A DNA stretch of 64,000 nt from Lysobacterales bacterium (GCA_023228845.1 JALOAK010000009.1:14007-78006), one strand, 5' to 3'. Shown: positions 24,098 through 52,478, numbered from the stretch's first letter. Translations and numbers: made by a program. The notes: a model not told the origin generated them from the letters alone.

Positions 24098-25045
24098 TTA
24101 CCAGGGGGATTCGAAGCCGTTGGCGAAGATATTCTCGCAGCTGGTCGGGATGGCCAGTTCCCACTCACCCAGCGGGTCATCGACGGACAGCGGATTGAAG
24201 GCCCCGGTATCCAGGTCGAAGGTGCCGAACACGTTGCGGCCGCTGCCGATGTAGAGCGAGGCATACAGCTTGCCGCTGGCGTTGTCGAAATCCATGCCCT
24301 GGGCGAAGTTGGTGCTGAACTGGTAGGGACCAACCAGGTCGGCGGCGCCGGTATCCGGGTCGATGCGGTAGAACGAGTCGGTCGTGATGCTGTGGCCGTA
24401 CAGCTCGCCGGCACAGTTCATGGCGATGTCGATCATCAGGGGCACGCCCATATCGCCGATGACGTCGGCAACGCCGGTGTCCAGGTCGATCGAGTACAGG
24501 GTGCTGTTGCCGCCGGTGACGCTGTCGGAAACATAGGCCGCTCCGGTCACCGGGTGGATGGTCAGGCCGGTGAAGTTGGCATTGTTCGGTACACCGCTGA
24601 CCGGAGCGGTCGATGTGAACTGGCCGGTCCCGATATCCAGGGTGCCCAGCGCGCGCAGATCGTTGTCGATCGCGTGCAGGATGGTTCCGGTGGGATCAAA
24701 GTCCAGGGCGTAGATGTGCATGCCGGCATCTCCGATCAGGCTGACCCCGGGGAAGTCATCAAGAAGGAAGGCATGCAGCCCCCTGTCAGGCCCCCCGTTG
24801 GCCGCGGTCAGGTTGTAGGCGAACGCCAGATCGTCTGGGGCCAATGCCGAGGCACGCCACGGGCCGGGCACCGGGGCGTTGGTCCGGGGCGCACATTGGG
24901 CAGCCCAGCCGGGCGGCTCGGCCTCGGCGCTGTGGGCCAGACCGGCGCAGTCCAGCGGTGCCTGGGCCGGCGTTGCGGCCAGCGGCTGGGCGAGGGTGGC
25001 GCAGGACAACAGCAGCGGCAGCAATAGCGGGGTGGTCTTCATCAT
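24098..25045 (-). CDS. Secreted beta-propeller-like repeat protein ending in IFANGFESPW
   Basis: Signal peptide MMKTTPLLLPLLLSCATLAQPLAA. Repeated blades of the type YALDFDPTG, LTIHPVTGAAYVSD, LYSIDLDTG, FYRIDPDTG, GMDFDNASGKLYAS and TFDLDTG. No family name assigned. Confidence 0.7.
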   Translation of the reverse strand: MMKTTPLLLPLLLSCATLAQPLAATPAQAPLDCAGLAHSAEAEPPGWAAQCAPRTNAPVPGPWRASALAPDDLAFAYNLTAANGGPDRGLHAFLLDDFPGVSLIGDAGMHIYALDFDPTGTILHAIDNDLRALGTLDIGTGQFTSTAPVSGVPNNANFTGLTIHPVTGAAYVSDSVTGGNSTLYSIDLDTGVADVIGDMGVPLMIDIAMNCAGELYGHSITTDSFYRIDPDTGAADLVGPYQFSTNFAQGMDFDNASGKLYASLYIGSGRNVFGTFDLDTGAFNPLSVDDPLGEWELAIPTSCENIFANGFESPW

Positions 25046-25217
25046 CGCTTCGGCACTCCGGGGGTGGTTTGAGGAATTGATGGCCAGCAACCGGGCAAGT
25101 CACCGGCCACTGGAGACAAGCAACGGTGAAGGCACCCGGGAACGGCCACCGCTGCTGCGGCCATGGACCCGGAGTGGGCGATACTGTGCGATCCGTCCAT
25201 TGCCTTGGTGACCCTGG

Positions 25218-26807
<1,590 letters not shown>

Positions 26808-26962
26808 CGGGGCGGGTTCACTGCGGCTGGCCAACGAAGGTGGTCATCCGGTGCCGATACCTTGTTCACGGTGTCACCGGATACCCGCATTCGCGGCCAT
26901 GACAAAAGTTTCCGTGAGGCAGCCAGCCTGGTTCGGATGTGCAATTGCCGCGTGTGGCAGCG

Positions 26963-29206
26963 TCAGCGGCCACCCAGGCGCTGCGCCAGGCGCAGACTCA
27001 AATGGAGCTGTTCCAGGCGGGCGCGCAAACCGGTTTCGCGCACCGCGAAAGGCTCATCCAGTGACAGGGTCCATTGCCGCCAATCGGCGTCGGTAAGGTC
27101 GAGCAAGCGCACTACATGGGCATCGGGTGCGCACTCGCCGGGCGCCAGCCAGGCATGCAGCCTTTCCTGTTCCAGCCGGATCTGTTCGCTTTCGCCAGTT
27201 GTCGCATCGACCAAGGTGAATTCCACCGGCTCGCCGCTGGCCAATCCGGGCCACTGCGCTTCCCGTTCGATCAGCGCCAGGCAGTCCAGGCGTTGGCCGA
27301 GCGGGCGCAACTGGTCCGGCGATCCCAGCGCCAGGAACTGACGCAGCGGCGCGCCGTGCTCGGAGCTCAGCACGGCGCGCCAGTCAGCAGGCAGGGCTTG
27401 CCCGAGGTCGCGCTGCAACGTTTCCAGTTGCGTATCGGTGGCAGCAGCGAAGGCCGGTTCATTGCCGCTGGCGTCGTCGTTGTGCAGCGTCACCGCCAGA
27501 CTTTGCACCAGCTCGCCAGTCGACATCGCCCGGGCGTCGGCCTGCAGGGCGGCCATGGTCGATTCGATCTGCTGCGCCGACCACGATGGCGCCATGAACG
27601 TCGACAGCAAACCGCGCACCTGCGGCAGGGCGGCGGTGGCGGCGAAACAAGCCAGCCACAGCGCCGACAACATCACCACGCTGCGCCGGCGCATGGGCTG
27701 CACGCGGGCCTGGCTGAGCGTGCGCTCGGCCAGCGCGATCTGCGCCGCCAACGCGGCCGGCGCGGCGGCATCGGCGCGCACGATGGCCAGCGTCTGCGCC
27801 ATCGCCATGTTTTCCGAGCGCGGCGGTTGCTCGGTGTTCGCTTGCCGTAGATCTGCCAGCAGGCGGCGGTCACGGCCGCCATTGCGCAGGTTGGTCAACG
27901 GCACCAGGGCCAGCAGTGCCAGCCACCAGGCATCCAGCGACCAGGCCAGCAGCACCAGGGCGAGGATCGCCAGGGCATCGAACACCTGGCGCAAACTGGC
28001 CGCGCGCTCGGGCAGCAACAGGTGCAGCAGATGGCCGCCATCCAGCGGCAGGATCGGCAGCAGGTTGAACAGGTTGATCAGCAGCAGGAGCAGGGCGGCC
28101 AGCCACAGCCAGCCATCGCCGAAATCGACGCCGACCAGGAACAGCGCAAGGCCGAGCACGATGCCCGGCAGCGGCCCCATCAGGCTGATCCAGGCCCGTG
28201 CCCGCGCCGAGGGTTCCTGCTCGTGGCCGATGGTGACGCCGCCGACCAGCGGCAGCATCAGCATCTGCACATTGCCATAGCCGAAGGCGCGCATTGCCCA
28301 CCAGTGACCGGCCTCGTGCAGGGCGATCACCGCCAGCAGCAGCACGGCGAAGCCGGGCGTCCAGAACCAGGCGCCCAGGGCGGCGAAGGCCAGCGCACTT
28401 AGTAGGAACAGGCCCCACTGCACCGGCAGCCGCGGTGAATGTCGGGCGGCCTGGCGCTGGTGTCGCCAGTACACCAGCGCGTGCGCTGCCGGCACCTGGA
28501 TATCCGGCCGCGCCGCCAGGGGCGAGGGCGCTTGCCGCAAGGCGGTCAGCACGGTTGCCAGGGCGCGGACAAAACCCAAGCGCCGGCTGCCGTCGTGGTG
28601 GCGGCGCAGTTGTCCCGCCTGGAAGGCGTGCTCGCAGACGGCGTTCTCGTAGGCCTGCAAGCGCTCGCCGGCAGCGGCCAGATCAGACCAGGGAATGGCG
28701 CCGTCCTGCGCCGCCAGCAATTCCCGGTGCGCCAGCAACTGCACGTCCAGCGACGGCCAGGCCGCCATCCGGGTGACTGCCAGCGCTGGCGGCGTCGCCA
28801 GTGGCGAAAGCAAGGTCGGTGCCGTGAACAGCAGCCGGCCATCGCGGCACTGGCTGACCAGGTGAATGCGGCAGGCGTGCGGCTCCTGTTCGGACCAGGG
28901 GGCGATCACCTGCGCAAGCACGAGGCCGTCATCGCTGCGATACAGCCGCGCCAGGCGTGGCCCGGGAATGCCTTCGGGCTCCTGCTCGATCAAGGTCCAG
29001 CCCAGGGCGGAAAAGCCCAATGCCGAAAGCTGGCCGTGGCTGTGCTCGAACAGCGGCGCAAACGACGCTGGCGCCGGCGCCTGTGCCAGCACCCGCAAGC
29101 GGATCCGGACCGGGAAAGGCCAGGCGAGCGCGGTGCGCAGCAACTGGACCAGAACCAGCGCCGCAATCAGCGCGATGATGCCCAGCACCGGAATGATTCC
29201 CGACAT
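26963..29206 (-). CDS. Membrane M50 (site-2 protease family) metalloprotease with large N- and C-terminal extensions; C-terminal SMI1/KNR4 (SUKH)-like region
   Basis: HEAGHWWAM (HExxH) and NLLPILPLDGGH (M50 LDG motif) lie within TM segments. The C-terminal TDTQLETLQRDLGQALPADWRAVLSSEHG resembles the SMI1/KNR4 start motif. Confidence 0.8.
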   Translation of the reverse strand: MSGIIPVLGIIALIAALVLVQLLRTALAWPFPVRIRLRVLAQAPAPASFAPLFEHSHGQLSALGFSALGWTLIEQEPEGIPGPRLARLYRSDDGLVLAQVIAPWSEQEPHACRIHLVSQCRDGRLLFTAPTLLSPLATPPALAVTRMAAWPSLDVQLLAHRELLAAQDGAIPWSDLAAAGERLQAYENAVCEHAFQAGQLRRHHDGSRRLGFVRALATVLTALRQAPSPLAARPDIQVPAAHALVYWRHQRQAARHSPRLPVQWGLFLLSALAFAALGAWFWTPGFAVLLLAVIALHEAGHWWAMRAFGYGNVQMLMLPLVGGVTIGHEQEPSARARAWISLMGPLPGIVLGLALFLVGVDFGDGWLWLAALLLLLINLFNLLPILPLDGGHLLHLLLPERAASLRQVFDALAILALVLLAWSLDAWWLALLALVPLTNLRNGGRDRRLLADLRQANTEQPPRSENMAMAQTLAIVRADAAAPAALAAQIALAERTLSQARVQPMRRRSVVMLSALWLACFAATAALPQVRGLLSTFMAPSWSAQQIESTMAALQADARAMSTGELVQSLAVTLHNDDASGNEPAFAAATDTQLETLQRDLGQALPADWRAVLSSEHGAPLRQFLALGSPDQLRPLGQRLDCLALIEREAQWPGLASGEPVEFTLVDATTGESEQIRLEQERLHAWLAPGECAPDAHVVRLLDLTDADWRQWTLSLDEPFAVRETGLRARLEQLHLSLRLAQRLGGR

Positions 29207-29409
29207 GCAGCGTCCCCTGGCGAGCGCCGGACCGGCGCGCGGTCATGGTAGCCACGTCGGGGCCGTTGTCTACTGCCCGGCGCCTGTCGAAACTTGCTGC
29301 CTACACCCTTTTTTTGCTTTGGTGAAGCCCATACAAGTTATGGTCAGAACGGCTCCATTCCGCTGAGCCGGTTGGCTCCGGCGCCTGGTCCCTGCTGAGA
29401 GGTGTTTCC

Positions 29410-30213
29410 ATGAACGCTGGTCATTCCCCATCGTCGCTTTTCTGGTCCCACGGCGCACTGGCCGCAGTCCTGTTCCTGTCGGCAGCCATGGTGCAGGCGC
29501 AGACCCGCATCCAGGCCGGTTATGTCCATATCGACGGTCGCAATGATTACGGGCCTGATCCGGATTGGGCGCACAACGACTGGCGCAGTGTCGACGACGG
29601 CAACGGGGTGGCCTTGTCGTTGCGGCATGACTGGTCGCATTTTTATGTTGTCGTGGAAGGGCAACGCCTGGACCTGTCTAATCGCCATCAACGTCCCATG
29701 AACATCTGCGGTGGTGGCGGACCTGGCCCCGACCCCGGTCAATGCGAGACTTTCCTGCGGGAATTCGCCTATGACGAGCGCTACCGCAGCTATGACGCCC
29801 GATTCGGGTGGCGTCATCGGGCGGGCGAAAGGATTGCAGCATGGGTTGAGCTGGGCGCGGTGCATGAGGACTGGTCGAGTTCGAACCGAACCTGGCGATT
29901 TCAGGACTGGCCGCATGAAGATGCCTTGCCTCTGGACCGGGAATCGGCCAGCGAAACGTCCTGGATCGTCGGCGCCGGTATCGACGTCGATCTATTCGAT
30001 GCAACCCGCTTGGCAATCGGCGTCAGTTATCGCGACGCTGGCTACTACACGGCGGTGAGGCAGTTGCCGGCCGGCCAGCGGGGCTCCAGTTCGCTTCTGG
30101 AAGGCAGCTTTCGGCTGATGCAGGGATTTGGTGGGCCGTGGCAGGGCCATGTCGAGTTCCGCCCAAGCGAAAAGCGGCAGTACTGGCAGGCGGGCATCGG
30201 CTACCGCTTCTAG
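29410..30213 (+). CDS. Putative small outer-membrane beta-barrel protein
   Basis: Signal peptide ...AVLFLSAAMVQAQ. Alternating amphipathic strands and a C-terminal ...AGIGYRF, where a terminal Phe is typical of OMPs. No family assigned. Confidence 0.6.
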   Translation: MNAGHSPSSLFWSHGALAAVLFLSAAMVQAQTRIQAGYVHIDGRNDYGPDPDWAHNDWRSVDDGNGVALSLRHDWSHFYVVVEGQRLDLSNRHQRPMNICGGGGPGPDPGQCETFLREFAYDERYRSYDARFGWRHRAGERIAAWVELGAVHEDWSSSNRTWRFQDWPHEDALPLDRESASETSWIVGAGIDVDLFDATRLAIGVSYRDAGYYTAVRQLPAGQRGSSSLLEGSFRLMQGFGGPWQGHVEFRPSEKRQYWQAGIGYRF

Positions 30214-30608
30214 ATGCACGGTCAGTTGACGCTGAAAACAGGCCGAGACCTCGGCGCTGATGAGTGCGTTGATGCACCGTTCGTCGTGGCTGGCGCAGGC
30301 ATCCGGGTTCTCGGCTGACCTGTTGGTACCGATGCGGATCGTCGGCTGGCGCGTCGAGCAGGACATGGGCCACCATCCCGCCCGTGGCGGCAGGAAGGCT
30401 GGCCGGCGGGGCCTGCGCCAAAGGCGCGCCGGACATCCAGGCTCTGGTCCGAATGCCCGCGAGGGATGCGAGCAGTTCCGGGTCTCCCGATGTCCGGGCG
30501 GCGGCCCCGCCGCCAGCCACTTGCACTGTTGCATGGATGTACACGCTTGACGATAGCAGCGCCATTGCCGAGCCCGTGTCAGCCATTTACCCAATCATTA
30601 CTCAGTCA

Positions 30609-33600
30609 TTACTCCTCATCCTGTTCGGAAACCGGGTCGCTATCGAGCAGGATCTGGAAGCCGTCGCGGAACAGCACCAGCCAACTGCGCGCGCTGGCGC
30701 TGACCGGATGATGATGTTCGGCTTCGGCATAGGCCTGCACCACCACCTCGTCGCCGGCGGCATCGATGCGCACCGGTGCGCTGATCAGGTACTGCACCTG
30801 GCCGCCGGCCGCCAGGGCCAGGCCGTCATCGTCGAGCGAGCCGGTCCCGGAGGCGCGGCAGCCGCTGTCCAGGTCCAGGCAGAACCACTCGGCCTGGGTC
30901 AGGTCCAGTTGCACTGGCAGCGGCACCAGCACGGTGCCCTGGGTTGCCGGGTCCTGGCCGGTGTTGCGCAGGGTCACCAGCCAGGCGGCGTGCGAGCCGT
31001 AGGCGAGGTGTTCCAGGCCGTTGTCGATGTCCAGCGCCAGCGTCACTGCCGGCGGCAGGTTGGTCAGTTCGAAAACCACTGGCTCGGCGATGCCCGCGAC
31101 ACTGGCCTGGATCGCGTAGCTGCCGGGCACGTTGTTGGCGCTGACGGCCACGGTCACCTGGCCTTGCTCATTGCTGCTGGCCTGGCCGGGAATGATGGCG
31201 CCGGCACCGCTGGCAGGCCCCTGGAAGCTGACGCTGACACCGGGTACCGGCAGGCCGGCATCGTTGCTGACGGCCAGCACCAGCGGCTCGGCAAAGCCGG
31301 TGTTGATCCGGGCCGACTGGCCGCTGCCGGAGACAATTGTCAGCACGCTGGCCGGGGCCAGGGTGAAGCTGGCATGCAGGGTGCAGCCGGCGCTGACCGG
31401 ATCCAGTGTGTAGACATCATCGGCCAGGCTGCCCTGGCAGTTGGTCCGGACGCCTTCAACCCGATAGCCCGCATCGGGGAGGAGTGAGAACGCAGGCGTG
31501 TCACCGTAGTCGACGGTGATCGTGCCGTCCGGATCGATGCTGCCGTTGTCACCGGCGCTGGCAATGATCTGGAAGGTGTCGATGGCGAAGCGGGCGTGCA
31601 GCGCACAGTCGGCCGTCACCGGATCCAGAGTGTAGACATCGCCGTCCAGTGCGCCGCTGCAACTGCCGCTGACTTCCTCCAGGTGATGACCGGTATCGGG
31701 TGTCACGGTGAAGCTGGGCATATCGCCGTAGTCCACCGTGATCGTGCCGTCTGGATCGATGCTGCCGTGGTCACCGACGCTGGCGCTGACCTGGAAGGTG
31801 TCGATGGCGAAGCGGGCGTGCAGCGCGCAGTCGGCCGTGACCGGTTCCAGGGTGAAGACATAGCCAGCCAGCGTGCCGATGCAACTGCCGCTGACCTCGT
31901 CCAGGTGGTGGCCGGTATCGGGTGTCAGGGTGAAGCTGGGCGTGTCGCCGTAGTCCACCGTGATCGTGCCGTCCGGATCGATGCTGCCGTCGTCACCGGC
32001 ACTGGCACTGATCTGGAAGGTGTCGATGGCGAAGCGGGCGTGCAGCGCGCAGTCGGCCGTGACCGGTTCCAGGGTGAAGACATCGCCAGCCAGTGTGCCG
32101 ATGCAACTGCCGCTGACCTCGTCCAGGTGGTGGCCGGTATCGGGTGTCACGGTGAAGCTGGGCGTGTCGCCGTAGTCGACGGTCAGCATGCCCGTCGGGT
32201 TGATCGCACCGTTGTCGCCGGCGCTGGCGCCGATCTGGAAGGTGTCGATGGCGAAGCTGGCGTGCAGAGTGCAGTGGAACATGACCGGTTCCAGGGTGAA
32301 GACGTTACCGGCCAGCGTGCCCGGGCAGTCGCTGCTGAGCGTGTCCAGGTGATGGCCGGTGTCGGGGGTGACGACGAAGCTGGGCGTGTCGCCATAGTCG
32401 ACAGTGAACATGCCCGCCGGGCTGATGCTGCCGTGGTCACCGGCACTGGCGCTGACCTGGAAGGTGTCGATGGCGAAGAAGACGTAGATCGTGCAATCAC
32501 TGGTAACCGGCGCCAGGATGTAGGCATTGCCGATCCATTCACCGATGCAACTGCTGCTGATGCTGCTTATGTGATGACCGGTGGCGGCAGCGAGAACAAA
32601 GCTGGGCGTATCGCCATGTTCCACCGTGATGACGCCCGCCGGGCTGATCGTGCCATTGCCGGTGGCGATGGTTTCGACCTGCCAGGTGTCGATGGCAAAT
32701 ACCGGCGCCACGGTGCAGTCGCCCGCCACCGGCGCGGTGGTGAACACCAGGCCATCCAGGCTTCCGCCACAGGTGCCGCCCACGGCGGCCAGGTGGTGGT
32801 TGGAAGCCGGCTGCATCTGGAAGCTGGCGCTGGCGCCGATGCCGACCAGTTGCGCGGTGTCCGGGCTGATGGTGCCGTTGGCCGCGGCGACCGGCGTGAT
32901 CCAGGCCGAGGGCAGGGCGCTGCCGGACAGGTCCACCACCAGCAGTGCCGCTTGCTGATTGCTGTCGACCACCAGTTGCGCCTGATGGCCTTCGGCGCCG
33001 GCAGCGACATGGTCGGGATGGTAGGTCAGCGTCAGTTGGCAACTGTCGCCGGGCAGCAGGACAGCGCAGGCGCTGGCGTGCGCCAATGAGAACTGGCCGG
33101 CGTCGGGGCCTTGCAGTTGCATCGGGCCGAGCAGCAGCTCCACGTCCGGCGACTGGTTGTGCAGGGTCAGCACGCGGCTGTCCTGATCGTCGACCAGGGT
33201 CGGGCCGAACTGCAGGCTGGCCTGGTCGCCGACCAGGTCGGGCGCGGTGCCGGTCAATCGCATCATGGCGCTGGGGTCGGTGTTGAACCAGACCGGGCCG
33301 CTGCCGGGGTACAGCAGCATCTGGACGCCGAGAACGTGGTCCTCGGCGCGCAGGATGGTGGCGCTGCCGCTGGCCCCGAAGTGGCCCGAGCCCAGGACCA
33401 GGGCGTACTCGCCGGGCGGCAGCAGCACATCATCGAAGGAGGCGCTGGCCTTGCGGTAGCCGGGTTGGCCAGCAATCAAGGTGCTGGCGATGGCCTGGTC
33501 GGCAAAGCCGGCACTGGTGGGCAAGGGCGGCCTGGCCCAGGAACCGGCGAGTGGAAAGATGGCGCCATAGAGCGTGCCCGACGAGCCCATCAACCAGGTG

Positions 33601-34397: not shown

Positions 34398-34654
34398 GTG
34401 GCTCCCCTGTTCGCAATGGATGCTGGTATTCGGCGGTGCTGCGGCGCCCGGCGTTGGCTCGGTCGCGGCCTGGTTCTTGGCCTGTGTCTGGTACAGCGCC
34501 GTTTTTGCCGGGATTCCCTCACCACCGGTCGGCACCTTCTGCCGGCATGGCAGCAAGTGGCAGCCAGCGGCAGCACAATCGCCCGCGGCCATCACCCTGC
34601 GCCCGCACGGGCGTCGCGTAGAATGGCGTTCCGAAACGCAGACTTGAGGTTTCA

Positions 34655-38392: not shown

Positions 38393-38448
38393 CCGGTTGG
38401 GCCGGCGACTTTGCGGTCGTTGCGTGCCAACGCGCAAGTCCCCTGGCT

Positions 38449-38488
38449 GATTCCGGCCGGCCACGCGAAAACCGGACCTTTTTTTTTT
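38449..38488 (+). terminator. Possible weak terminator ending in a T10 tract
   Basis: tccgg...ccgga forms a 5-bp stem followed by cc and TTTTTTTTTT (38479-38488), downstream of the 37460..38392 gene. Confidence 0.3.
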
Positions 38489-38555
38489 GTCACTGGCCAG
38501 GCACGGTGGTTGCGCTATCGTGCCGGCACCCATCCATATTGAAGGCAGCAAACCC

Positions 38556-39374: not shown

Positions 39375-39857
39375 CCGCAAGCCGGCCACGGCCAGCGACG
39401 CCGGATTTTGGCGATTGCCGGCTCGGGCGTCGCCGGCGCCGGCGGCAGGTTCTGCTGCCGGCAGAGTCAGGCCAGCACCGTGTCACCAGCAGGGTTTCCG
39501 GCACTGAACGGCGGTAATCTCAGCAACACCGCGCACATCCCGGCAACCGCCCATGCGGTCCATCCGGGCCGCGCAGTTCAGCCTGGATCAGACTTGATCA
39601 GCGATAATCCGGCCCCATACCGTTTTCTGATCGTCCGTTGACGATGATGTCGGGCCTGCCCAAACCTCTGCGCCGGCGGTCCACTGCGTCTTCCCATCAT
39701 TTCGGTTCCGCGGCCATCGCCCCTGATTGGCATGGTCTCCAGGCACCGGTGCCGGGCACCGTGCCCTTGCCGGCGCCGCGAAAAAGCCCGGCAGCGGCGG
39801 CGCTTGCCATTGCTATCGTGCGGCTGCCAACCGCTTTCCATCGAGGTATTCCCGATC

Positions 39858-40829
39858 ATGTCCGTTCTGTCGCCCGTGCCGTCCGTGCTTCCCGATGTTG
39901 CCAACGAAACCGGCCTGGCCGTCAAGGGACGGCTGGACTGGGTCGGCATGGGCGCGATCCATGCGCCGGTGACCCTGGCAGGTGAGGACGGCCAGGCGGT
40001 CCGCTTTCCGGCCCGTATTGATGCCGCCGTCGACCTGCAGCGCGGCGATGTCCGCGGCATCCACATGTCGCGCCTGTACCTGCACCTGGACCGCGCCCTG
40101 GGCGCCGAAGTCCTGACCCCGGCCGCGCTGCGCCGCCTGCTGACGCTGTTCCTGGAATCCCAGGGCGGCCTGGCCAGCCGGGCCAAGGTCGGCATCCACT
40201 TTGAATACCTGGCGCGGCGTGCGGCGCTGATTTCCGACAACTCCGGCTGGAAGGCGTATCCGGTCAGCATCACCGGCCTGCTTGAGGACGGACATTTCCA
40301 GCTCGAGCTTGGTTTGCAGGTGCTGTACTCCAGCACCTGCCCGTGCTCGGCGGCGCTGGCCCGGCAACTCATCCAGCAGCGATTCCGCGAGGATTTCGCC
40401 GGTGACGGCCAGGTCGACGCCGGCCGTGTCCTGGACTGGCTGGGCACCGAGCAGGGCATCAATGCCACCCCGCACAGCCAGCGTTCGGCCGCCGACATCA
40501 AGGTGCGGCTGAAGCCGGCCTTCGACCAGTTTCCGATCATCGCCCTGATCGACCGCATCGAGCAGGCGCTGGGCACGCCGGTGCAGACCGCGGTCAAACG
40601 CGAGGACGAGCAGGCCTTTGCCCACCTCAACGGCAGCAACCTGATGTTCTGCGAGGATGCCGCGCGACGCATCCAGTCGGCTCTGGACAGCGACGACCAC
40701 GTCGCCGATTTCTGGGCGCGGGTCAGCCACTACGAAAGCCTGCATCCGCATGACGCCGTGGCCGAGGCCAGCAAGGGCATCGCCGGCGGTTACCGCGCCG
40801 GTGCCGGCAGCCTTGGCGGGGGCGTGTGA
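39858..40829 (+). CDS. folE2: GTP cyclohydrolase IB (FolE2/MptA family)
   Basis: ATG 39858. GIHMSRLY, LYSSTCPCSAALAR, ATPHSQRS and ESLHPHDAVA are FolE2 hallmarks. Confidence 0.9.
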   Translation: MSVLSPVPSVLPDVANETGLAVKGRLDWVGMGAIHAPVTLAGEDGQAVRFPARIDAAVDLQRGDVRGIHMSRLYLHLDRALGAEVLTPAALRRLLTLFLESQGGLASRAKVGIHFEYLARRAALISDNSGWKAYPVSITGLLEDGHFQLELGLQVLYSSTCPCSAALARQLIQQRFREDFAGDGQVDAGRVLDWLGTEQGINATPHSQRSAADIKVRLKPAFDQFPIIALIDRIEQALGTPVQTAVKREDEQAFAHLNGSNLMFCEDAARRIQSALDSDDHVADFWARVSHYESLHPHDAVAEASKGIAGGYRAGAGSLGGGV

Positions 40830-41335
40830 TGCCGTCCGAGCGCGGCCATCGCCTGGCTGACCGGGTCGGCCTCGGTGCCGCCTGGGCCTGCGCCCTGCAT
40901 TGCGCCACCTGGCCACTGCTGCTGGCGCTGTTGCCGGCACTGGGCGCCTGGCGCGTGTCCGGCCTGGAAGCCGGCTTCGTCATCTTCGCCTGCCTGCTGG
41001 GCCTGACCAGCCTGGTCATCGGCTACCGCCGGCACCGCGTGTTCCGGGCCTTCTGGCTGTTGCTGCCCGGCCTGGGCCTGCTGGTTGCCGGCGCCGCCAC
41101 GCATCTGCACGAAGAACCGATCTGGCATGCGGTGGTGATGACCGCCGGCGGCCTGCTGGTCGGCCTGGCGCACATCATCAACCTGCGCCTGAGCCACGGC
41201 CATGTCCACGATGCCTGTTGCGGCCACCTGCCGGCCGGGCATCTGGATGCCGAAGCTGACGGCGAGCATCGGCATCACGATCATCATCACGGCCACGGCC
41301 ACGGTACTGCCGCGCCAGGCAAGGCACAGAGCTGA
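40826..41335 (+). CDS. MerC-like membrane protein with His-rich C-terminal tail
   Basis: Four predicted TM segments, an N-terminal ALHCATWPLLLALLP (MerC-like Cys) and the tail HGHVHDACCGH...EHRHHDHHHGHGHG. The start overlaps the folE2 stop (GTGATG). Confidence 0.7.
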   Translation: MMPSERGHRLADRVGLGAAWACALHCATWPLLLALLPALGAWRVSGLEAGFVIFACLLGLTSLVIGYRRHRVFRAFWLLLPGLGLLVAGAATHLHEEPIWHAVVMTAGGLLVGLAHIINLRLSHGHVHDACCGHLPAGHLDAEADGEHRHHDHHHGHGHGTAAPGKAQS

Positions 41336-41552
41336 GCGTCGGGCTGAGCATCGGCACACCGGTCGCTGCCATGGCGGGCGGATAGCCGGCGGCTCCGGCA
41401 ATGCCCGAGGGCTGACGCCGGCCCGCAGCCTGTGTGCATTTCGCTGCGGACAAGCCTGACAGTTGGCCCCGCCCGGCCCGCAGGACGCCGGCTCCGCGGG
41501 CAGCGGCCATTACACTGGGCCAATCTTCAGGCAACCCAGGAATTCCCCAATC

Positions 41553-42242
41553 ATGAATCGAACCGTCGTCATTACCGGCGCCGCGGGCGCACTCGGCCGC
41601 GTCGTCGCCCGCCATTTCCTCGACCAGGGTGCGCGGCTGGTGCTGCTCGACCGCGAGCTGGCCCTGCTGCAGTCGGCGTTCGCCGACCTGGACGGCGCTG
41701 CCGGCCATCGGCTTCTGGCCGCCGATGTCACCAACGAGGATGTCATGACGCAGGTTCTGGCTCGGGTTGGCGACATCGATGTGCTGGTGCACGCCGCCGG
41801 CGGCTTCACCATGGGCGAGAGCGTGGCTGAGCTGTCGCGCGCCACCTGGGAACACATGCTGGCACTCAACGCCTGGTCGTTCGTCGCCGCCGCCCGCGCC
41901 GTGGTACCGGGCATGGTCGAACGCGGCCAGGGCCGGATCATCGCCGTTAGCGCCCGCGCCGCCGCCCAGGGCGCGGCCGGCATGGCCGCCTATGTCGCCG
42001 CCAAGAGCGCGCTGCAGCGCCTGGTCGAAACCCTGTCGGCGGAAGTGCGCGAGCAGGGCATCGCGGTCAACAGCATCGCCCCCAGCATCATCGATACCGC
42101 GGCCAACCGTCAGGACATGCCCGATGCCGACCCAGCGCGCTGGGTGGCACCGGTGACGCTGGCCGAGACCATCGGCTTCCTGGCCTCCGAAGCCGGTGGC
42201 GCGATCCACGGCCAGCACCTGGTGGTGTCGGGCCTTTCCTGA
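41553..42242 (+). CDS. Short-chain dehydrogenase/reductase (SDR)
   Basis: ATG 41553. ITGAAGALGRVVA (TGxxxGxG) and YVAAK (YxxxK). Confidence 0.88.
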   Translation: MNRTVVITGAAGALGRVVARHFLDQGARLVLLDRELALLQSAFADLDGAAGHRLLAADVTNEDVMTQVLARVGDIDVLVHAAGGFTMGESVAELSRATWEHMLALNAWSFVAAARAVVPGMVERGQGRIIAVSARAAAQGAAGMAAYVAAKSALQRLVETLSAEVREQGIAVNSIAPSIIDTAANRQDMPDADPARWVAPVTLAETIGFLASEAGGAIHGQHLVVSGLS

Positions 42243-42378
42243 GCATGGGCCGGTGCATGGGCCGGGTTTCGGCCCGGCGATGGCTTGGCGACGGCCAGGA
42301 TTTGCTCTGTTGCAGCCGGCCCGGTCGCGGTTTCTTTCGTACAAGGCGCCGGCCGGCTGCCCGCAGCGCTTAATGCGA

Positions 42379-42490
42379 CGCCATCAGCCGGTACGGATAT
42401 CCCGCACCGGCACCTTGAACGGGCCGCATTCGCGGCCCGTTTCGATCAGCAGCCGGGCCGCTCCGGCCCGCACTCGAAGCCATCGCGCAG
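42379..42490. repeat. Direct repeat copy A (112 bp): orphan copy of the S8 gene 3' end plus hairpin
   Basis: 108/112 identical by hand alignment to 46232-46343. Its minus strand encodes only LRDGFECGPERPGC-stop, with in-frame stops upstream. Contains the hairpin acgggccgc-attc-gcggcccgt (42419-42440). Confidence 0.9.
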
Positions 42491-42732
42491 TCTACTGTCC
42501 GCAGACCTTCAAGGTCAGCATTCCCCAGTGGCGGTCGAAGCGGTCGCATTGGGGTGCGCCACGAAAAGACAAAAGTGCATAATAGTTAACTGTTTGAGAT
42601 CATTTTTCCCGCTATCTTCACCTTCGCATTCGTGAGGCGGAGCCCTTCAGGGGTGGCCAGATCCCAGGCCTTAAGGGATTTCTCGAAAAGTTATCAAAAC
42701 AGATCCGTCCCCAGCTCATCCAGGAAACAGTC

Positions 42733-45501
42733 ATGCGCGCACTCATCCTGTTTATCGCTGTAGTCTCTTCGCTGGTAGCCGCACCGTTCGCATGCAGCTC
42801 GGAGATCGACGATTCCGTCATGGCCCTGCGCCATCGGCTTTCTGAAAGTGGCAGCCATATCTTGATGGCGGCCCCGGCCTCCCAACGGCCGGCAACAACT
42901 GCGAATCTGATCGAAGCCCTGTCTATTCCTAACGCGCAGTTTCTGGACGTGAGCCTGGAGGCGCCGCCGCTGTCCGTGGCCGTGTTGCCGGAGTTAGGCG
43001 CTATCCGCCCGACACAGGGAAGCCACTTTGTTGTGCTGAGCACTGGCGTTGCCGGCAGCACGCAACCGGTACCGGGACAAGACTACCGCTCTGCAGACGG
43101 ACGGGGCAACGGCGCCACCCTGACACTGGTGCTTGACCCGCCACCGGGCACGGCGCAGTTGTCGCTCGACTACCTTTTTCTCACCGCTGAGTACCCCGCG
43201 TTCGTCGGTAGCTTGTACGAAGACCGGTTCACCGCCACGCTTACCGACGCCGAAGGACGAAAGGCTGTTTTCGATCTGAACGCCGGCAGCCCCCTTGTCC
43301 ACCCCGTCACCCCCAAACCTTATCAGGGCAGCGGCTTCGACCTGTTCACGCCCGACCCATTGGCGCTTGATGCCGAATTCGGCCTGGGGCTCCCGGCAGC
43401 CGGAACCACCGGCTGGCGGACCTTGACCCTGCCTTTCATGGCCCAGGGCCCGATCATGGTCGAACTGGAAATCCGCGATGCCGGCGACGGGTTGTTCGAT
43501 TCGACTGTCTTGTTGAGCAACCTGCAGATCACATCGATGATGTTGCTCGGCGAAGGCGACGATCATTTCTGGCGATCCTGCGCTCATGCCTATAGCAGCA
43601 CAGGACCTTTCCCAATGCGCCAACCGGTGCCACCTGGGCCTGGCGCATTTGGTGTAGTCGCCGATGGCAAGACGAAATGGCCATATGCGATCCTCAATAC
43701 CACTCGCTTTGATTATGTGCAATACGCCCTGATTGGTGGCTCCGCACCTGAAGACGGCGGCTTGGGCGGACCCGGCACCAACGACCGCTTGGATCTGGTT
43801 CTGTTGCCGATCACCGAACAGTTGGTTCCCGGCTTCTGGGGCGCCTATGCTCATTTCTTCGCCCCGGAGGAGTTCAATCGTGGAGGCGACGAGGACGATG
43901 CCGAGCGCCAGTTTGCGATTCAGACCTGCTTTCGCAATGTAGGCGGTCCGTTGCAACACTGCACGACGCGGCCTTTTCGTATCCTGCGACCTCCGGTGGT
44001 CCTGATGCACGGGCTGTGGTCACGTGCCCAAGTCTGGCGCGACTCACCTATTCATCGTGATGAAAGAACTCGAACTTTTCCCGTGAACTATGCGGCTACA
44101 CATGCCCGCGGATTCGCCGTCAATTCGAAGACCCCAGAAGGAAAGATGATGGAGTCATGCTTTCAACTTCATGAAGAGAATGTTCTGTCATCACGAGTTG
44201 ATTTTGTTGGACACAGCATGGGCGGAAATCTGGGCAGGCTCTACAATTCCCATGCCAGCAACCGGATAAACAAACTAATCACCATCAACACTCCACACCA
44301 TGGGTCGCCCTTCGCCAATGTAACGGCAGGTGTACGCGACTCGCTTCCCATTGAAGCCCGGTTGGCCATGAATATGGTAATGCGTCTCATCAAACGCGCA
44401 ATCGACGAAGGCGCTATCGACGACCTGGTCGAAAACAGTGCCGGAATAACCTCGATTCCAGCCACACTCATTCCCGGTCACGCATTGGTTGGCACCGGTG
44501 GTTCGGCCTATGTCGGGGAGCAGCTGAGACACGCACCAACGGTGGATGCGCTAACGTATGCCGTGCTACATTTTTTCGTCGAGGGCGCTCTGAATTTACT
44601 GTTCGATGGCGAAGAACACGACCTGATAGTGGCGCGTGGCAGCCAGACCGGTGGGCTCAGCCCACTCGCCAGCACCCTCTATTCGGGCGCCGACAGTATG
44701 CACACACTTGCACCCTCAAGCACGAACTATGCTGCGGGCGTCATGGAGCTGCTAAACAGCCATAGGCTCGGGTCTATGTTCGAATATTTCCCTGAGCCCA
44801 CGATCCTGACCTCCTCCCTCCTGGATAAGTGGTCCGCCGTAGCGCCGACGTTGTCTGAACGGCTAGCTAGGATTGAGGTGATTCCTTCCGGCATCGAAGT
44901 ACTTGTTCCTGGCGATGGGAGCCCGGCAACAGCCGGTGAGCCTGTGCAGTTCACTGTCGTTGCAGCCGATGGTTTCGGCCTCAATAAGGTTCTGGTGATA
45001 GGTAGCGATTCTCATGCCTTGATCGAACAGCCGCCCTTCGAACAGAACGTGTGGATTCCACTAGAACATGCTGGCGCGATGGCCTTCGCGGTGTTAGGGA
45101 AGGATGCAAGCGGAAATATTACAGGGCCCGTTGAAGTATCTGTCCAAGTCACTGTGTCGGCCAGTTTACTCGGGGTGGACATCCTAAACAGCACAGGCTA
45201 TCTGTTCGGCATCGGTGATAATCTCCAACTCTCGGTCCAAGGCCTCTACGACGACGATATCGACCGCGACCTCACCCATCCGTCCACGGGAACGGTATAC
45301 TTTAGTTCGAATCCATCGATCGCAACGGTTGATGAAAATGGAAGAGTTACCTCGGTCGACCATGGAACCACTGCGATCATCGCCCAGAACGGTAATTTCC
45401 AAGACGGTATCTTGGTAACAGTCATGCATGACGATCGCCTATTCGCCAATGGTTTTGAGACGTTCCAGTGGCGTGCGGCGGCTGCAATCATGGGCCGTTG
45501 A
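42733..45501 (+). CDS. 922-aa secreted multidomain lipase/alpha-beta hydrolase (choice-of-anchor-L-like N domain, GHSMGG hydrolase core, Ig-like/Big_2 C domains), ending in LFANGFE...
   Basis: Signal peptide MRALILFIAVVSSLVAAPFA. LSLDYLFLTAEYPAFVGSLYEDRFTATL resembles choice-of-anchor L. VVLMHGLWS...VDFVGHSMGGNLG is a nucleophile elbow. VTSVDHGTTAIIAQ is Big_2-like. Confidence 0.8.
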   Translation: MRALILFIAVVSSLVAAPFACSSEIDDSVMALRHRLSESGSHILMAAPASQRPATTANLIEALSIPNAQFLDVSLEAPPLSVAVLPELGAIRPTQGSHFVVLSTGVAGSTQPVPGQDYRSADGRGNGATLTLVLDPPPGTAQLSLDYLFLTAEYPAFVGSLYEDRFTATLTDAEGRKAVFDLNAGSPLVHPVTPKPYQGSGFDLFTPDPLALDAEFGLGLPAAGTTGWRTLTLPFMAQGPIMVELEIRDAGDGLFDSTVLLSNLQITSMMLLGEGDDHFWRSCAHAYSSTGPFPMRQPVPPGPGAFGVVADGKTKWPYAILNTTRFDYVQYALIGGSAPEDGGLGGPGTNDRLDLVLLPITEQLVPGFWGAYAHFFAPEEFNRGGDEDDAERQFAIQTCFRNVGGPLQHCTTRPFRILRPPVVLMHGLWSRAQVWRDSPIHRDERTRTFPVNYAATHARGFAVNSKTPEGKMMESCFQLHEENVLSSRVDFVGHSMGGNLGRLYNSHASNRINKLITINTPHHGSPFANVTAGVRDSLPIEARLAMNMVMRLIKRAIDEGAIDDLVENSAGITSIPATLIPGHALVGTGGSAYVGEQLRHAPTVDALTYAVLHFFVEGALNLLFDGEEHDLIVARGSQTGGLSPLASTLYSGADSMHTLAPSSTNYAAGVMELLNSHRLGSMFEYFPEPTILTSSLLDKWSAVAPTLSERLARIEVIPSGIEVLVPGDGSPATAGEPVQFTVVAADGFGLNKVLVIGSDSHALIEQPPFEQNVWIPLEHAGAMAFAVLGKDASGNITGPVEVSVQVTVSASLLGVDILNSTGYLFGIGDNLQLSVQGLYDDDIDRDLTHPSTGTVYFSSNPSIATVDENGRVTSVDHGTTAIIAQNGNFQDGILVTVMHDDRLFANGFETFQWRAAAAIMGR

Positions 45502-45511
45502 GGGATTAAGA

Positions 45512-46177
45512 ATGCACAGGCCCCTTTTTCTCTTGCTTATTTGCGTGCTGCTGTCTGGCTGCGGCGATTTGTTGCATCCGATCAAAATGCTTGCCGCAGG
45601 CGCCAGGGAGCCAAAGCCACTTGAACAGCAGTATCATAGTCTTGCAAGAGAAATTGCTTCACCGAAGCCGTGTCTACTGGTTTCCTCCAGCGCCATCAGT
45701 TTTTCCGCCTGGGGAGGCCCCGGAGCCAGATATATTCGCATCAGGTCCGACTGTTATCTAGAAGTGGCACTTAAAACACAGAACATACATCTTTGCGATC
45801 AAATAGAAAATATCCCTGTTTGGATGGAGCGTGACTCCCTTCTTGGACCCCATTATTGTCGCCAACTCGTCGAACAGCGAAACAGAGGTATCGGAGAGAT
45901 GCCCGACCTGTCACTGCTGATGAGCGAAATGGGTTACGCCGACGATGAAATCGAACAGGCCAGTGGCAATCCTCGCAGAACCATGCGGTCCGAAGAGTTC
46001 TTCTATCGTATCGACCGGTTGCCGCACTACGGCAGCGAAGAGGACAGGCGCCAGATGCAGGCCATGGTCTGGCAGCCGCCAGCGCAGCATCCACCACAAC
46101 CGGATGTCTGTGGTCCCCACGAGCAGCCACCCGGTGACGGCGAGCCACCCAGGATATGCATTCCGTTCCCTGGATAG
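45512..46177 (+). CDS. Cys-rich lipoprotein of unknown function, probably co-transcribed with the lipase
   Basis: ATG 45512 lies 10 nt after the lipase stop, with GAGGGA upstream. Lipobox LLSGC. No recognisable family. Confidence 0.65.
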   Translation: MHRPLFLLLICVLLSGCGDLLHPIKMLAAGAREPKPLEQQYHSLAREIASPKPCLLVSSSAISFSAWGGPGARYIRIRSDCYLEVALKTQNIHLCDQIENIPVWMERDSLLGPHYCRQLVEQRNRGIGEMPDLSLLMSEMGYADDEIEQASGNPRRTMRSEEFFYRIDRLPHYGSEEDRRQMQAMVWQPPAQHPPQPDVCGPHEQPPGDGEPPRICIPFPG

Positions 46178-46231
46178 TTGGTCCTGGTCGACTGGCACGG
46201 CTTGATTGCCGATGGACGGATGATCCGCCGG

Positions 46232-46343
46232 CGCCATCAGCCAGTATGGATATCCCGCACCGGCACTTTCAACGGGCCGCATTCGCGGCCCGTTTCGATC
46301 AGCAGCCGGGCCGCTCCGGCCCGCACTCGAAGCCATCGCGCAG
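46232..46343. repeat. Direct repeat copy B (112 bp) overlapping the functional 3' end of the S8 protease gene
   Basis: Covers the last 14 codons plus stop (46299-46343) and the downstream hairpin at 46272-46293. Confidence 0.9.
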
Positions 46344-48959
46344 CAGGATTTCCGGCGAAGCCAGTACCTGCGTGGTCTCGCTGGCGTGGTTGTTGCCGGT
46401 GTCCGGATCGGCCGCGATGGCGCTGACCTGGGCAATGGTGGTGATCAGCCCGGCCGGCGTGCGCACGTCGACCAGGGCGTCGATCTCCAGCACCGGTGCC
46501 AGGCTGGCCGCGGGCGTGCCAGTGGCCAGGGTGCAGGTCACTTGGCCGGCATCCGGCAGACAGGTCCAGTCGCGGCCGCTGCCACCATCCACGGTGCGCG
46601 CCTGGCCGTAGTCGGTGCCATCGGGAAGCTCAAGCACCACGGTGATCTCGCCGCTGTCATCGGGTCCGAAGTTGACCACATTGACCACCCAGGTGAGCGG
46701 ATTGCCGGCGATGACCGGGTCGGGCACATCGGCCAGGCTCAGCGCCAGGTCGGCGCCCGGAGCGCTGCCCGCAGGTTGGCAGTTGTAGCAGACCAGGGCG
46801 AAATCCTGGGCGTTGCTGGCGCCGGCATTGGGCAGGGCGTTGGAGTTGATGTCGGCGGCCAGCACCTCCACCGCAATCACGCCGCCGTGCTGGTCCGGGC
46901 GCAGGAACACGCCTTCGGTGTTGTTGCGGTGCTCGGCGCTGCCGCCGGTGGCCGACCAGCCATCGGTGAAAACATTGCCCAGGTAGAGCTGGTCATCGGC
47001 CTGCACACGCAGATCCAGATCATTGTTCCAGGCCGGCGTGCTGCTGCCCAGGCCGTGGCCGGGAGCGTCGGTCCACACCAGCATCAGGCGCATCGGCTGA
47101 TCCGGGTCGCCGGCTTCCCAGGTTTGCTGCCAGCTCTGGCCGGTGGCGTCGAACACGTGTTCCTGGTCGACATAGACCACCGGCAGCTCCGGTGCCAGGA
47201 CGGCGGCCGGGCGCATCCGGCCCCAGCCCTGCTTGCGATCGGGGCGAGCGCCGATCGGGTTGTTGTTGGCATCGTTGTTGCCGACCAGATCCTGGCTCAC
47301 CGGCAGGAACGCGGCCTTGACCAGGGCCGGGCTGGGATCGGCCCCGGCCAGCTCCCGGTAGTACTGGAAGAACAGGCCGGCGGCGCCGGCGACATGCGGC
47401 GCGGCCTGGCTGGTGCCGCCCTGCATGACATAGCCGCTGCTGCCGGCGGTGGAATCGGTGAACCGGCTGTTGGCGATCATGTGCGGGATGAAGCGGCCAT
47501 CCAGGGCCGGGCCGTGGCCACTGTTGGCGGAAATATGCTCGTTGCGCAGATCCTGGGTGTTGGCATCGACCTGGGCCCAGGCCGAGCCGATGGTGAAGAT
47601 GTTCTTGGCCTCGTCGGGGATGCCCTGCGAGCTGGTGCCGCCACCGCCATTGTCGATCGCCAGGACATACAGCAGCGGCTGGTCGCCGGTGGCGTCGGTA
47701 TCGGCATCGCGGCTGCCGATGTCGACCTGGCGCGCGGTGGACTCGTAGCCGGCCGGCCCGCTGCCGCCCCAACTGTTGTTGGACAGCACCGCGCCGTTGC
47801 GCACCGAATCGCGCATCCGGTTCAGATAGGCGGGCGTGCCGGCCGCAAAGGTGTAGCGCTGCTCGATCAACTGCGCGCCCGGCGCCATGCCCAGGCCGCG
47901 CAGCAACCCATGGCTGTTGGTGAGCCCGGAGCTGCCGTCGGCGGCCATGATGCCGGCGACATGGGTGCCGTGATCGCCACCCTGAGTGCCATTGCCGCAG
48001 GTCGGCCCGGTGCAGGGCAGCATGCGGTTGATCAGGTCGGGATGGTTGGCCTGGGTACCGCTGTCGACGCAGGCCATGATCACACCGCTGCCATCCAGTT
48101 CCAGGTTCTCGAGGAAGGCCAGGTAGCCCGGGTAGGCAAGGCCGCCGGCGTCGACATTGCCGAAGTTGATCTGCACGCTGGTTTCGCTGCGGTTGAACGG
48201 CTCGATCACCGGTTGCACGGCGTAGATGCCGGGCAGGGACGCCAGTTGCGGCAGGCGGCTGGCGGCGACCTGCACCGTCAGCATGTCCAGATGGCGATCC
48301 AGGCGGCCACGGTCCTGCACTGTCACCGCCAGGGCGGCCAGGCGCTGGTCAAGATCGGCCAGGCCGGGGCGCGCCAGCAGGCTGACAGCGATCAGGCCCT
48401 CGCCATCGCGGCGCATCACCGGCGGCAACCGGTAGTCGGGCAGGAACTCGCCCTGCCAACGCACGCCGGGCAGTTGCCCAGCGCGGGCCTGGGCGGTCGC
48501 GTCGGCCCAGACCACATAGGTATGCGGATGGATGTACTGCACCGGCTCGATGCCGGCGGCGGCCAGCTCATCCAGCCATTGCTGTTTCACCGGGCCTTGG
48601 AACTGCACCAGGCGCCAGTCCGGCTCCGGTGTCGCCTGCCAGCCGGCGAACGGCGCCGCGCTCAGTTGTGCGGTCAAGTTCAATGGGTCGAAGCGTTGGC
48701 CGCCCAGATCCAGCTCGAACGGCCGCTCGACGACATGGATTTCCAGGCCTTCGGCACGCAGCGCGTCGATATCGGCGCTGGCCATCGGCAGCCAGCGGAA
48801 GGCGCCGTAATCAATGACGTTGCCGGAGTGCAGGCGTGCGTCGAGCTGGTCGGCTGCGCCGTGCACGCGCACCCAGCTCCGCGCATCGGTGGCAGCCGCG
48901 GTGGCCATGCTGGTGGCGAGCAGGACGGCGAGGGTGAAGCGGGCGAGAGTCAGGCTCAT
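46299..48959 (-). CDS. Secreted subtilisin-like serine protease (S8) with C-terminal DUF11-like domain, ending in LLRDGFECGPERPGC
   Basis: ATG (CAT 48957-48959) follows GGAG. Signal peptide MSLTLARFTLAVLLATSMATAAA. Catalytic triad contexts VDSGTQANHPD, HGTHVAGIMAA and GGTSQAAPHVAGAAGL. Confidence 0.9.
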   Translation of the reverse strand: MSLTLARFTLAVLLATSMATAAATDARSWVRVHGAADQLDARLHSGNVIDYGAFRWLPMASADIDALRAEGLEIHVVERPFELDLGGQRFDPLNLTAQLSAAPFAGWQATPEPDWRLVQFQGPVKQQWLDELAAAGIEPVQYIHPHTYVVWADATAQARAGQLPGVRWQGEFLPDYRLPPVMRRDGEGLIAVSLLARPGLADLDQRLAALAVTVQDRGRLDRHLDMLTVQVAASRLPQLASLPGIYAVQPVIEPFNRSETSVQINFGNVDAGGLAYPGYLAFLENLELDGSGVIMACVDSGTQANHPDLINRMLPCTGPTCGNGTQGGDHGTHVAGIMAADGSSGLTNSHGLLRGLGMAPGAQLIEQRYTFAAGTPAYLNRMRDSVRNGAVLSNNSWGGSGPAGYESTARQVDIGSRDADTDATGDQPLLYVLAIDNGGGGTSSQGIPDEAKNIFTIGSAWAQVDANTQDLRNEHISANSGHGPALDGRFIPHMIANSRFTDSTAGSSGYVMQGGTSQAAPHVAGAAGLFFQYYRELAGADPSPALVKAAFLPVSQDLVGNNDANNNPIGARPDRKQGWGRMRPAAVLAPELPVVYVDQEHVFDATGQSWQQTWEAGDPDQPMRLMLVWTDAPGHGLGSSTPAWNNDLDLRVQADDQLYLGNVFTDGWSATGGSAEHRNNTEGVFLRPDQHGGVIAVEVLAADINSNALPNAGASNAQDFALVCYNCQPAGSAPGADLALSLADVPDPVIAGNPLTWVVNVVNFGPDDSGEITVVLELPDGTDYGQARTVDGGSGRDWTCLPDAGQVTCTLATGTPAASLAPVLEIDALVDVRTPAGLITTIAQVSAIAADPDTGNNHASETTQVLASPEILLRDGFECGPERPGC

Positions 48960-52477: not shown

Positions 52478-52478
52478 T

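Follow-up and report, generated by a model that had tools for sequence, protein, structure and literature searches.

A short FxDGFE-type C-terminal tail on unrelated Sec-exported proteins of Lysobacterales and Acidobacteriota, a candidate sorting or docking signal

Introduction

Why do four exported proteins with different domains, encoded within one stretch of bacterial DNA, finish in nearly the same seven residues? The question is raised by a 64,000-nucleotide stretch from a Lysobacterales bacterium (GCA_023228845.1 JALOAK010000009.1:14007-78006), referred to below in its full length as the window, which belongs to a Lysobacterales-like metagenome-assembled genome (MAG) from a landfill and whose S8 protease is 63% identical to that of Pseudofulvimonas gallinarii. 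A sequence-only reading of this DNA had proposed that the [LI][FL][AR][ND]GF[EQ] tails of a beta-propeller protein, a repeat protein, a lipase and an S8 protease form an uncharacterised C-terminal sorting or secretion tag. Time and again, tags of the C-terminal sorting kind have opened the way to new envelope machinery, as with sortase, exosortase, rhombosortase, myxosortase and the PorU protein of type IX secretion systems (T9SS). We find that the tail forms a C-terminal peptide module of its own, separate from the domains that precede it, and that it is carried by exported proteins of two lineages at the position where their relatives carry known cell-surface sorting signals, so that it probably represents a novel type of address or docking label.

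Results

Four exported proteins of the window end in the same tail

The tails were read by translating the four window genes, with passenger domains assigned by Pfam and sorting signals by NCBIfam (coordinates in Table 1). Translation reproduced all four exactly: the propeller protein ends in TSCENIFANGFESPW (also written CENIFANGFESPW), the repeat protein in SWLVLFRDGFQILLDSDPVSEQDEE (LVLFRDGFQILLDSDPVSEQDEE), the lipase in DDRLFANGFETFQWRAAAAIMGR (RLFANGFETFQWRAAAAIMGR) and the S8 protease in SPEILLRDGFECGPERPGC (EILLRDGFECGPERPGC), each directly followed by the stop codon, and a fifth, orphan copy was found besides. The distance from motif to stop is 3 to 18 amino acids (aa) in these proteins. 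As the earlier reading had it, each of the four starts with a Sec-type N-terminus (MMKTTPLLLPLLLSCATLAQPLAA, MHRRWPVLMSALIVLAALAGQGHA, MRALILFIAVVSSLVAAPFA and MSLTLARFTLAVLLATSMATAAA). A six-frame scan located nine [ND]GF[EQD] sites in the window; the four tails and the orphan copy each lie 7 to 18 codons ahead of a stop. By a heuristic, about 12 open reading frames (ORFs) of the window look Sec-exported, and 4 of these are tailed, compared with 0 of the approximately 45 others.

By Pfam the passengers are unrelated, as the earlier reading had it; the C-terminal region of the repeat protein lacks a Pfam DUF11 match and looks DUF11-like by eye only. The noted resemblance to choice-of-anchor D and L domains corresponds to existing matches, but both fall below the NCBIfam cut-off (choice_anch_D, NF012200, 32.4 bits against 45; choice_anch_L, NF038133, 24.5 against 27) and so amount to sub-threshold similarity. 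Two other claims of the sequence-only reading stood: the PEP-CTERM, LPXTG, GlyGly-CTERM and T9SS models of NCBIfam gave no match on the four window proteins, and no tail contains a hydrophobic run of transmembrane (TM) length or a basic cluster after the motif. The IPTL-CTERM model likewise gave no match on the four.

The motif mostly occupies protein C-termini in a large family

Across the family the core of the motif is [LIV]-F-x-[DN]-G-F-[ED]. In Lysobacterales-type Gammaproteobacteria, the landfill MAG among them, it is followed by 0 to 18 variable residues that frequently end in AP, and in Acidobacteriota it takes the form of a fixed 19-20-mer, [LI]FxDGFESGDTSAWSxxxP-COOH, whose SGDTSAWSxxxP end is hydrophilic. 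The Lysobacterales motif is the short form of this larger C-terminal module, which a variable linker joins to the end of hydrolases, propellers, beta-helix proteins and adhesin-like proteins that are exported by Sec.

A DNA pattern for [LF]Fx[ND]GF[ED] was scanned in one genome per species over 185,579 species and returned at least 120 loci. Position was then counted for in-frame sites that have 100 or more codons upstream, with GFD sites as a control; these counts, and the taxonomic ones given below, hold among the matches listed. Thirty of the 46 GFE sites lay within 20 codons of a stop, compared with 1 of 34 GFD sites (Fisher p=4e-9), and the distances to the stop showed two peaks, one of 13 cases at 12 aa and one of 8 cases at 0-1 aa. 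Of the 21 tail ORFs that are complete at their 5′ end, at least 17 encode a Sec-type signal peptide as judged by a simple heuristic. An equal abundance of the motif inside proteins or in cytoplasmic ones, which the sequence-only reading had named as an outcome that would speak against a tag, is thus not what the positions and the signal peptides of the carriers indicate.

A profile built from tail-bearing fragments (alignment A3) matched 5,364 protein clusters (50% identity) at E<=0.001 in a search of 1.84 billion representative proteins that used no word index. Among the 100 single-motif matches listed, the motif lay within 20 aa of the protein end in 88 and exactly 12 aa from it in 80, and in 74 of those 80 the final residue was Pro. 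Since a profile hidden Markov model (HMM) is blind to protein ends, this placement reflects a genuine positional constraint.

Homologues conserve the tail or exchange it for known anchors

Among orthologues with the S8 plus DUF11 architecture, at 44-100% identity and including proteins of Pseudofulvimonas gallinarii, Dokdonella, Wenzhouxiangella and Rhodanobacteraceae, the motif lies in the last 30 aa of 64 out of 64. Their consensus is D-R-[IL]-F-A-[DN]-G-F-[ED]-x3-4-AP up to the stop and the residues ahead of the motif vary, a contrast that suggests purifying selection on the tail. The Cys-bracketed variant of the window protease recurs in its closest relatives, for example as ILFRDGFECAAGRPGC in P. 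gallinarii. S8 homologues without DUF11, two of them labelled Acidobacteriota, end in IFADGFESGDTSAWSxxxP straight after DQDFxLVCYNC, and other S8 homologues terminate in dockerin or TM anchors.

In the propeller homologues the alternative ends begin after the same conserved domain end, NPLGEWE.AIPT.C. Some carry short tails (IFANGFEHLW, VFADGFESR and, in Denitratimonas sp. CY0512, DVFADGFESPL), and others, a Thermoanaerobaculia protein among them, carry long ones such as VFADGFESGDTSAWSATAP. In other lineages the same junction is followed by IPTL-CTERM, PEP-CTERM, other TM anchors or dockerins instead of the tail. NCBIfam detected IPTL-CTERM in the homologue P0061 (20.9 bits) and PEP-CTERM in P0105 (20.5 bits) in the same run that was blank for the FxDGFE tails, and the run therefore serves as its own sensitivity control. 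Two relatives of the repeat protein came from metagenomes (L127 and L128), and a Flg_new_2 repeat immediately precedes their ends, GIFSDGFESQP and GIFSDGFESQR; the metagenome search gave no relatives of the lipase.

We note that other short tails without a TM segment occur at these junctions: PVELQSFSVE (P0085 and P0095) and RFPWPMFIPxxxxxx (P0057, P0064 and P0075) in propeller homologues, and an end of the form [FY]LPL[IV]x[KR] in Anaerolineae-type S8 homologues (P0196-P0241). The two of these tails that were tested (P0095 and P0064) had no NCBIfam match. Short orphan C-terminal tails may be a wider phenomenon, and FxDGFE may be one of several, alongside PVELQSFSVE, RFPWPMFIP and YLPLIxK.

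The tail is confined to two lineages and is apparently undescribed

All 30 C-terminal sites came from Acidobacteriota, from Lysobacterales-type Gammaproteobacteria or from a few loosely labelled MAGs, and none from the approximately 75 loci of other named lineages. Apart from one unclassified MAG, the long form, LFxDGFESGDTSAWSxxxP, was seen only in Acidobacteriota (Thermoanaerobaculia, Holophagae and Sulfomarinibacteraceae). The short form, with 0 to 5 aa after the motif, was seen in Lysobacteraceae, Ahniellaceae, Rudaea and Wenzhouxiangella (Lysobacterales in the broad sense), in MAGs labelled just Proteobacteria and in one Patescibacteria-binned contig. Clustering of tail genes is not peculiar to the window: seven extra tail ORFs, which were not ascertained by the DNA pattern, adjoin ascertained ones, and no such extra ORFs were present in the loci of other taxa.

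No Pfam-A (2025) or NCBIfam 20.0 model matched the tails at E<=10, and a profile search of the PDB gave no relevant sequence, just a chance WD40 match. Literature searches on the motif, on choice-of-anchor domains, on Lysobacter type II secretion system secretomes and on Thermoanaerobaculia turned up no description of the motif, and a survey of C-terminal sorting signals covers tripartite signals only (Haft myxosortase preprint, bioRxiv 10.1101/2023.06.07.544157). In the databases, the tail-bearing proteins listed are named hypothetical protein or after the passenger domain. The tail has apparently gone undescribed so far.

Structure models predict a flexible tail

In AlphaFold2 models the body of the window propeller has a pLDDT above 90, and tail residues 301-315 form an undocked coil with a pLDDT of 55-66. 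A long-tail propeller homologue gave the same picture, with a body above 90 and an undocked coil at 55-66. The tail is thus modelled as a flexible extension. The notion that it is an integral strand of the preceding domain was rejected, as the models leave it undocked.

Table 1. Tails, tailed genes and neighbouring features of the window (positions counted from its first nucleotide)
Feature	Position	Strand	Remarks
Exported beta-propeller protein, DUF4394/DUF6923, 316 aa	24098-25048	minus	Translation and Pfam
Propeller motif IFANGFE	24110-24130	minus	Then SPW and stop
Exported repeat protein, 1262 aa	30609-34397	minus	Four Flg_new_2 and Big_1 (Pfam); choice-of-anchor-D-like region, sub-threshold
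Repeat-protein motif LFRDGFQ	30654-30674	minus	Then acidic 18-aa end ILLDSDPVSEQDEE
Exported lipase/esterase, alpha/beta hydrolase and Big_2, 922 aa	42733-45501	plus	Translation and Pfam
Lipase motif LFANGFE	45439-45459	plus	Then TFQWRAAAAIMGR; codons AAT GGT TTT
Exported S8 subtilase, Peptidase_S8 and DUF11, 886 aa	46299-48959	minus	Translation and Pfam
S8 motif LLRDGFE	46326-46346	minus	Then CGPERPGC
Orphan S8 tail copy, LRDGFECGPERPGC and stop	42446-42490	minus	No gene body upstream
Direct repeat copy A, 115 nucleotides (nt)	42376-42490		Last 45 nt of the S8 coding sequence and 70 nt downstream hairpin
Direct repeat copy B	46229-46343		Functional S8 3′ end and terminator
Low-GC insert, 3.74 kb	42491-46228		GC 0.52-0.575 against 0.69-0.71 in the flanks; carries tailed lipase and lipoprotein ORF
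Lipoprotein ORF, 221 aa	45512-46177		No family match
M50 peptidase, unusually long, 747 aa	26963-29206		Pfam PF02163; no NCBIfam match
CPBP protease	55737-56552		Far below every myxosortase cut-off

A tailed lipase was inserted beside a duplicated S8 tail

The lipase gene lies in a low-GC insert that sits at the 3′ end of the S8 gene and is bracketed by a direct repeat including that end (Table 1). The two repeat copies are 96% identical and their boundary falls exactly at the L codon of LRDGFE, an arrangement that produces the orphan tail; the 3.74-kb cassette itself contains no integrase or transposase. A unitig common to both copies (42418-42490, 73 nt) stood at twice the flanking depth in the landfill run X1, so the 115-nt repeat is real. 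Depth across the insert equalled that of the flanks in X1, placing the insertion at full depth in the source population, and no empty-site variant was present in Logan contigs. The lipase, in foreign low-GC DNA, encodes the motif by other codons, which argues for selection on the peptide and not on the DNA.

Discussion

As a candidate for an uncharacterised sorting or secretion tag, the motif is supported by its terminal position, the signal peptides of its carriers, its conservation, its lineage limits, its exchange with known anchors and the missing descriptions. Our preferred reading, whose function we infer and to which we give about an even chance, is that the tail acts after Sec export as a docking or sorting peptide for a presumed partner. 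Sec export and folding would leave the tail exposed, and a lineage-specific partner would recognise it and either move the protein across the outer membrane or retain it at the cell surface. The hairpin would probably be bound by a soluble or outer-membrane receptor. Beta-strand augmentation or complementation would be the simplest binding mode, given the hairpin-like sequence of the tail.

Several observations weigh against this reading. Two of the four window tails depart from the core: the repeat protein has Q in place of E, and the S8 protease has L in place of F. In the top multi-copy profile matches the motif opens each repeat unit, recurring every ~290 aa, and in the metalloproteases L009 (Dokdonella sp. 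MW10) and L105 (a MAG labelled Rhodanobacter denitrificans) LFADGFD is internal, with a Pro-rich linker, then Ig-like repeats and a C-terminal domain behind it. In the S8 relative P0138 a window-type tail, VIFAHDFECAAGLPGC, precedes a jelly-roll of ~200 aa, and in P0191 the motif is followed by a Gly linker and a further domain. Tandem double tails occur in P0263 and P0264, for example IFADGFESGSADAWSLAAGAMLFADGFETGDTSAWSLVPP before the stop. All-against-all clustering of ORFs gave no recurrent neighbour family in the 30 tail loci, and tblastn with the M50, CPBP, outer-membrane protein (OMP), amidohydrolase and lipoprotein sequences of the window gave no matches in the 120 loci listed, 30 of them tail-bearing. 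The element is therefore best described as a modular unit that is usually, though not always, terminal.

Further variants were seen among these proteins. A large exported protein of a Dokdonella MAG (L038) likewise has an internal motif of the LF[AC]DGFD type. It and L009 end in a domain of ~150 aa, GY(L/V)...TT...GFPA...YD.SGAAIT..P, which has no NCBIfam match; the C-terminus of L105 is a jelly-roll-like domain instead. In the set P0263, P0264 and P0249, some proteins have the tandem tails and others a tail, a mini-domain of ~60 aa and a second tail.

These internal copies bear on the first of two alternatives that we regard as about equally unlikely, namely that the motif is a structural relic, the first strand of a jelly-roll or a generic junction between domains, with no addressing role. 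The pattern F-x-D-G-F-E-S-G-x-x-x-x-W is common to the tail and to ConA-like jelly-roll families from their first profile positions on, the motif aligning to position 1 of PF14099 (Polysacc_lyase) in P0328 and to position 3 of PF02018 (CBM_4_9) in P0253; by sequence, the tail matches the first beta-hairpin of such domains. The copies repeated every ~290 aa open PF14099 and CBM_4_9 domains, and P0138, P0191 and the L009 and L105 metalloproteases all continue past the motif, as a junction would predict. A ConA-like jelly-roll is, however, a complete beta-sandwich of ~130-210 aa, and the window tails have no Pfam coverage; because the window proteins (3-18 aa) and most of the listed single-motif proteins stop within 0-18 aa of the motif, a jelly-roll cannot fold there. 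A relic would also be expected to decay, whereas the S8 orthologues retain the motif without exception and the long form keeps its fixed 12-aa, Pro-final end over thousands of unrelated proteins. Confinement to two lineages and alternation with bona fide sorting signals also sit poorly with a relic, and in L009 and L105 what follows the internal motif is the Pro-rich linker, not a jelly-roll.

The second alternative, also improbable in our estimate, would make the tail a processing or stability element, either a site at which an extracellular or periplasmic maturation protease removes C-terminal extensions or a cap against exoproteolysis. It is consistent with a motif at the border between passenger and optional C-terminal domains, with the predicted flexibility and exposure of the tail, and with the many carriers that are proteases or hydrolases, enzymes that commonly have C-terminal propeptides. 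Many proteins, however, end 0-1 residue past the motif, as in LFANGFE followed by the stop, and there cleavage would take nothing off. Processing would also leave both the exchange with PEP-CTERM, IPTL-CTERM and dockerin and the lineage restriction unexplained.

Far less credible is a role of the tail as substrate signal for the nearby intramembrane proteases, M50 or CPBP, in the manner of the myxosortase and rhombosortase systems. The M50 and small OMP genes do lie between two tail genes, and MYXO-CTERM-type signals are substrates of CPBP-family enzymes (bioRxiv 10.1101/2023.06.07.544157). Without a TM segment, however, the tails could not reach an intramembrane active site; M50, CPBP and OMP homologues were missing from the tblastn loci listed, and the CPBP protein, far under all myxosortase cut-offs, is encoded in a separate low-GC island. 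The sequence-only reading had linked M50 and CPBP to the motif by proximity only, and that link found no support near the other tail genes listed. As to the neighbourhood itself, the M50 gene and the gene for the small OMP, a 267-aa beta-barrel, span 26963-30213, and the same pair is present on an independent 5-kb contig (L122). A second low-GC stretch, at ~50700-56600 (GC 0.587), contains HTH regulators, DUF6522, DUF4386, DUF1508, GNAT and CPBP genes, with a GC at third codon positions of 0.66 for CPBP, compared with ~0.85 in host genes; the stretch probably represents a separate island gained by horizontal transfer.

A translated DNA repeat or recombination site, or chance recurrence, was rejected as the source of the motif and we consider it barely conceivable: the start of the 115-nt repeat does coincide exactly with the L codon of LRDGFE, the inserted cassette being bracketed by the repeat, but the duplication is limited to the S8 tail, the four tails differ in codons and have no extended DNA identity in common, conservation across phyla is at the amino-acid level, orthologous tails show the opposite of the excess of synonymous-site over amino-acid conservation that a DNA element would call for, and the DNA pattern TTCNNNRAYGGYTTYSAR for Fx[ND]GF[EQ] occurs 3 times in the window against 0.01 expected by chance.

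If the tail is a true address or docking signal, an unknown recognition system is implied, and a simple sequence rule would predict secreted or surface-exposed proteins in Acidobacteriota and Lysobacterales. Thousands of exoenzymes and adhesin-like proteins carry the tail in these two environmentally abundant lineages, and it could furnish a portable tag of 7-20 aa for secretion or display. Cultured carriers such as Dokdonella sp. MW10, Pseudofulvimonas gallinarii, Wenzhouxiangella and Denitratimonas make the proposal directly testable. To our knowledge, all known sortase-type systems depend on a membrane-anchor architecture, which the FxDGFE tail does not have.

Comparison with known sorting and docking signals

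Some known C-terminal signals differ from the tail at the outset. Type I secretion substrates lack a Sec signal peptide, whereas tail carriers have one both in the window and, for the most part, elsewhere. The OMP beta-signal is an aromatic residue at the C-terminus, closing a beta-barrel strand of alternating hydrophobic pattern; among the window proteins, whose passengers are soluble folds, only the propeller ends in W.

The tripartite signals (PEP-CTERM with exosortase, IPTL-CTERM, GlyGly-CTERM with rhombosortase, MYXO-CTERM with myxosortase and LPXTG with sortase) are closer: like the tail, they are short C-terminal signatures on unrelated Sec-exported proteins, lineage-restricted and present in many copies per genome, and PEP-CTERM and IPTL-CTERM share its junction in homologues. 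They differ in having a TM helix and an Arg/Lys cluster. The tail has neither and can be merely 7 residues long, so that intramembrane cleavage or transpeptidation of the sortase, exosortase, rhombosortase or myxosortase kind is impossible. The family HMMs (TIGR02595, TIGR04174 and others) fail on the window proteins and on tail-bearing homologues at E<=10. WGxxGxxG-CTERM (NF038039) is an orphan domain of broad distribution for which the sorting enzyme is not identified (bioRxiv 10.1101/2023.06.07.544157); it too was detected by comparative genomics, but it is described as similar to the tripartite architecture, which the FxDGFE tail does not resemble.

Among signals that do not use the membrane, dockerin, too, sits at the C-terminus of diverse enzymes, which it docks to a partner, and it takes the place of the tail in some propeller and S8 homologues. 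It is a duplicated Ca-binding fold of ~60-70 aa, whereas repeats of that kind are absent from the tail, for which no cohesin-like receptor is known. The T9SS C-terminal domain (Por_Secre_tail) is comparable as a soluble, non-membrane signal on Sec-exported proteins that is read in the periplasm for secretion or surface attachment. That domain is a folded beta-sandwich of 70-100 aa belonging to Bacteroidota, whereas the tail is a peptide of 7-25 aa, flexible in the models, of Acidobacteriota and Lysobacterales, and matches no NCBIfam or Pfam model. It is a tentative and rather bold extension of our reading that, leaving aside the T9SS of Bacteroidota, FxDGFE, in its full form FxDGFESGDTSAWSxxxP, could be the first C-terminal address in diderm bacteria that is linear and non-membrane and serves Sec-exported proteins, read by an undiscovered receptor of Acidobacteriota and Lysobacterales that would act as a secretion gate or as a strand-complementing dock at the cell surface.

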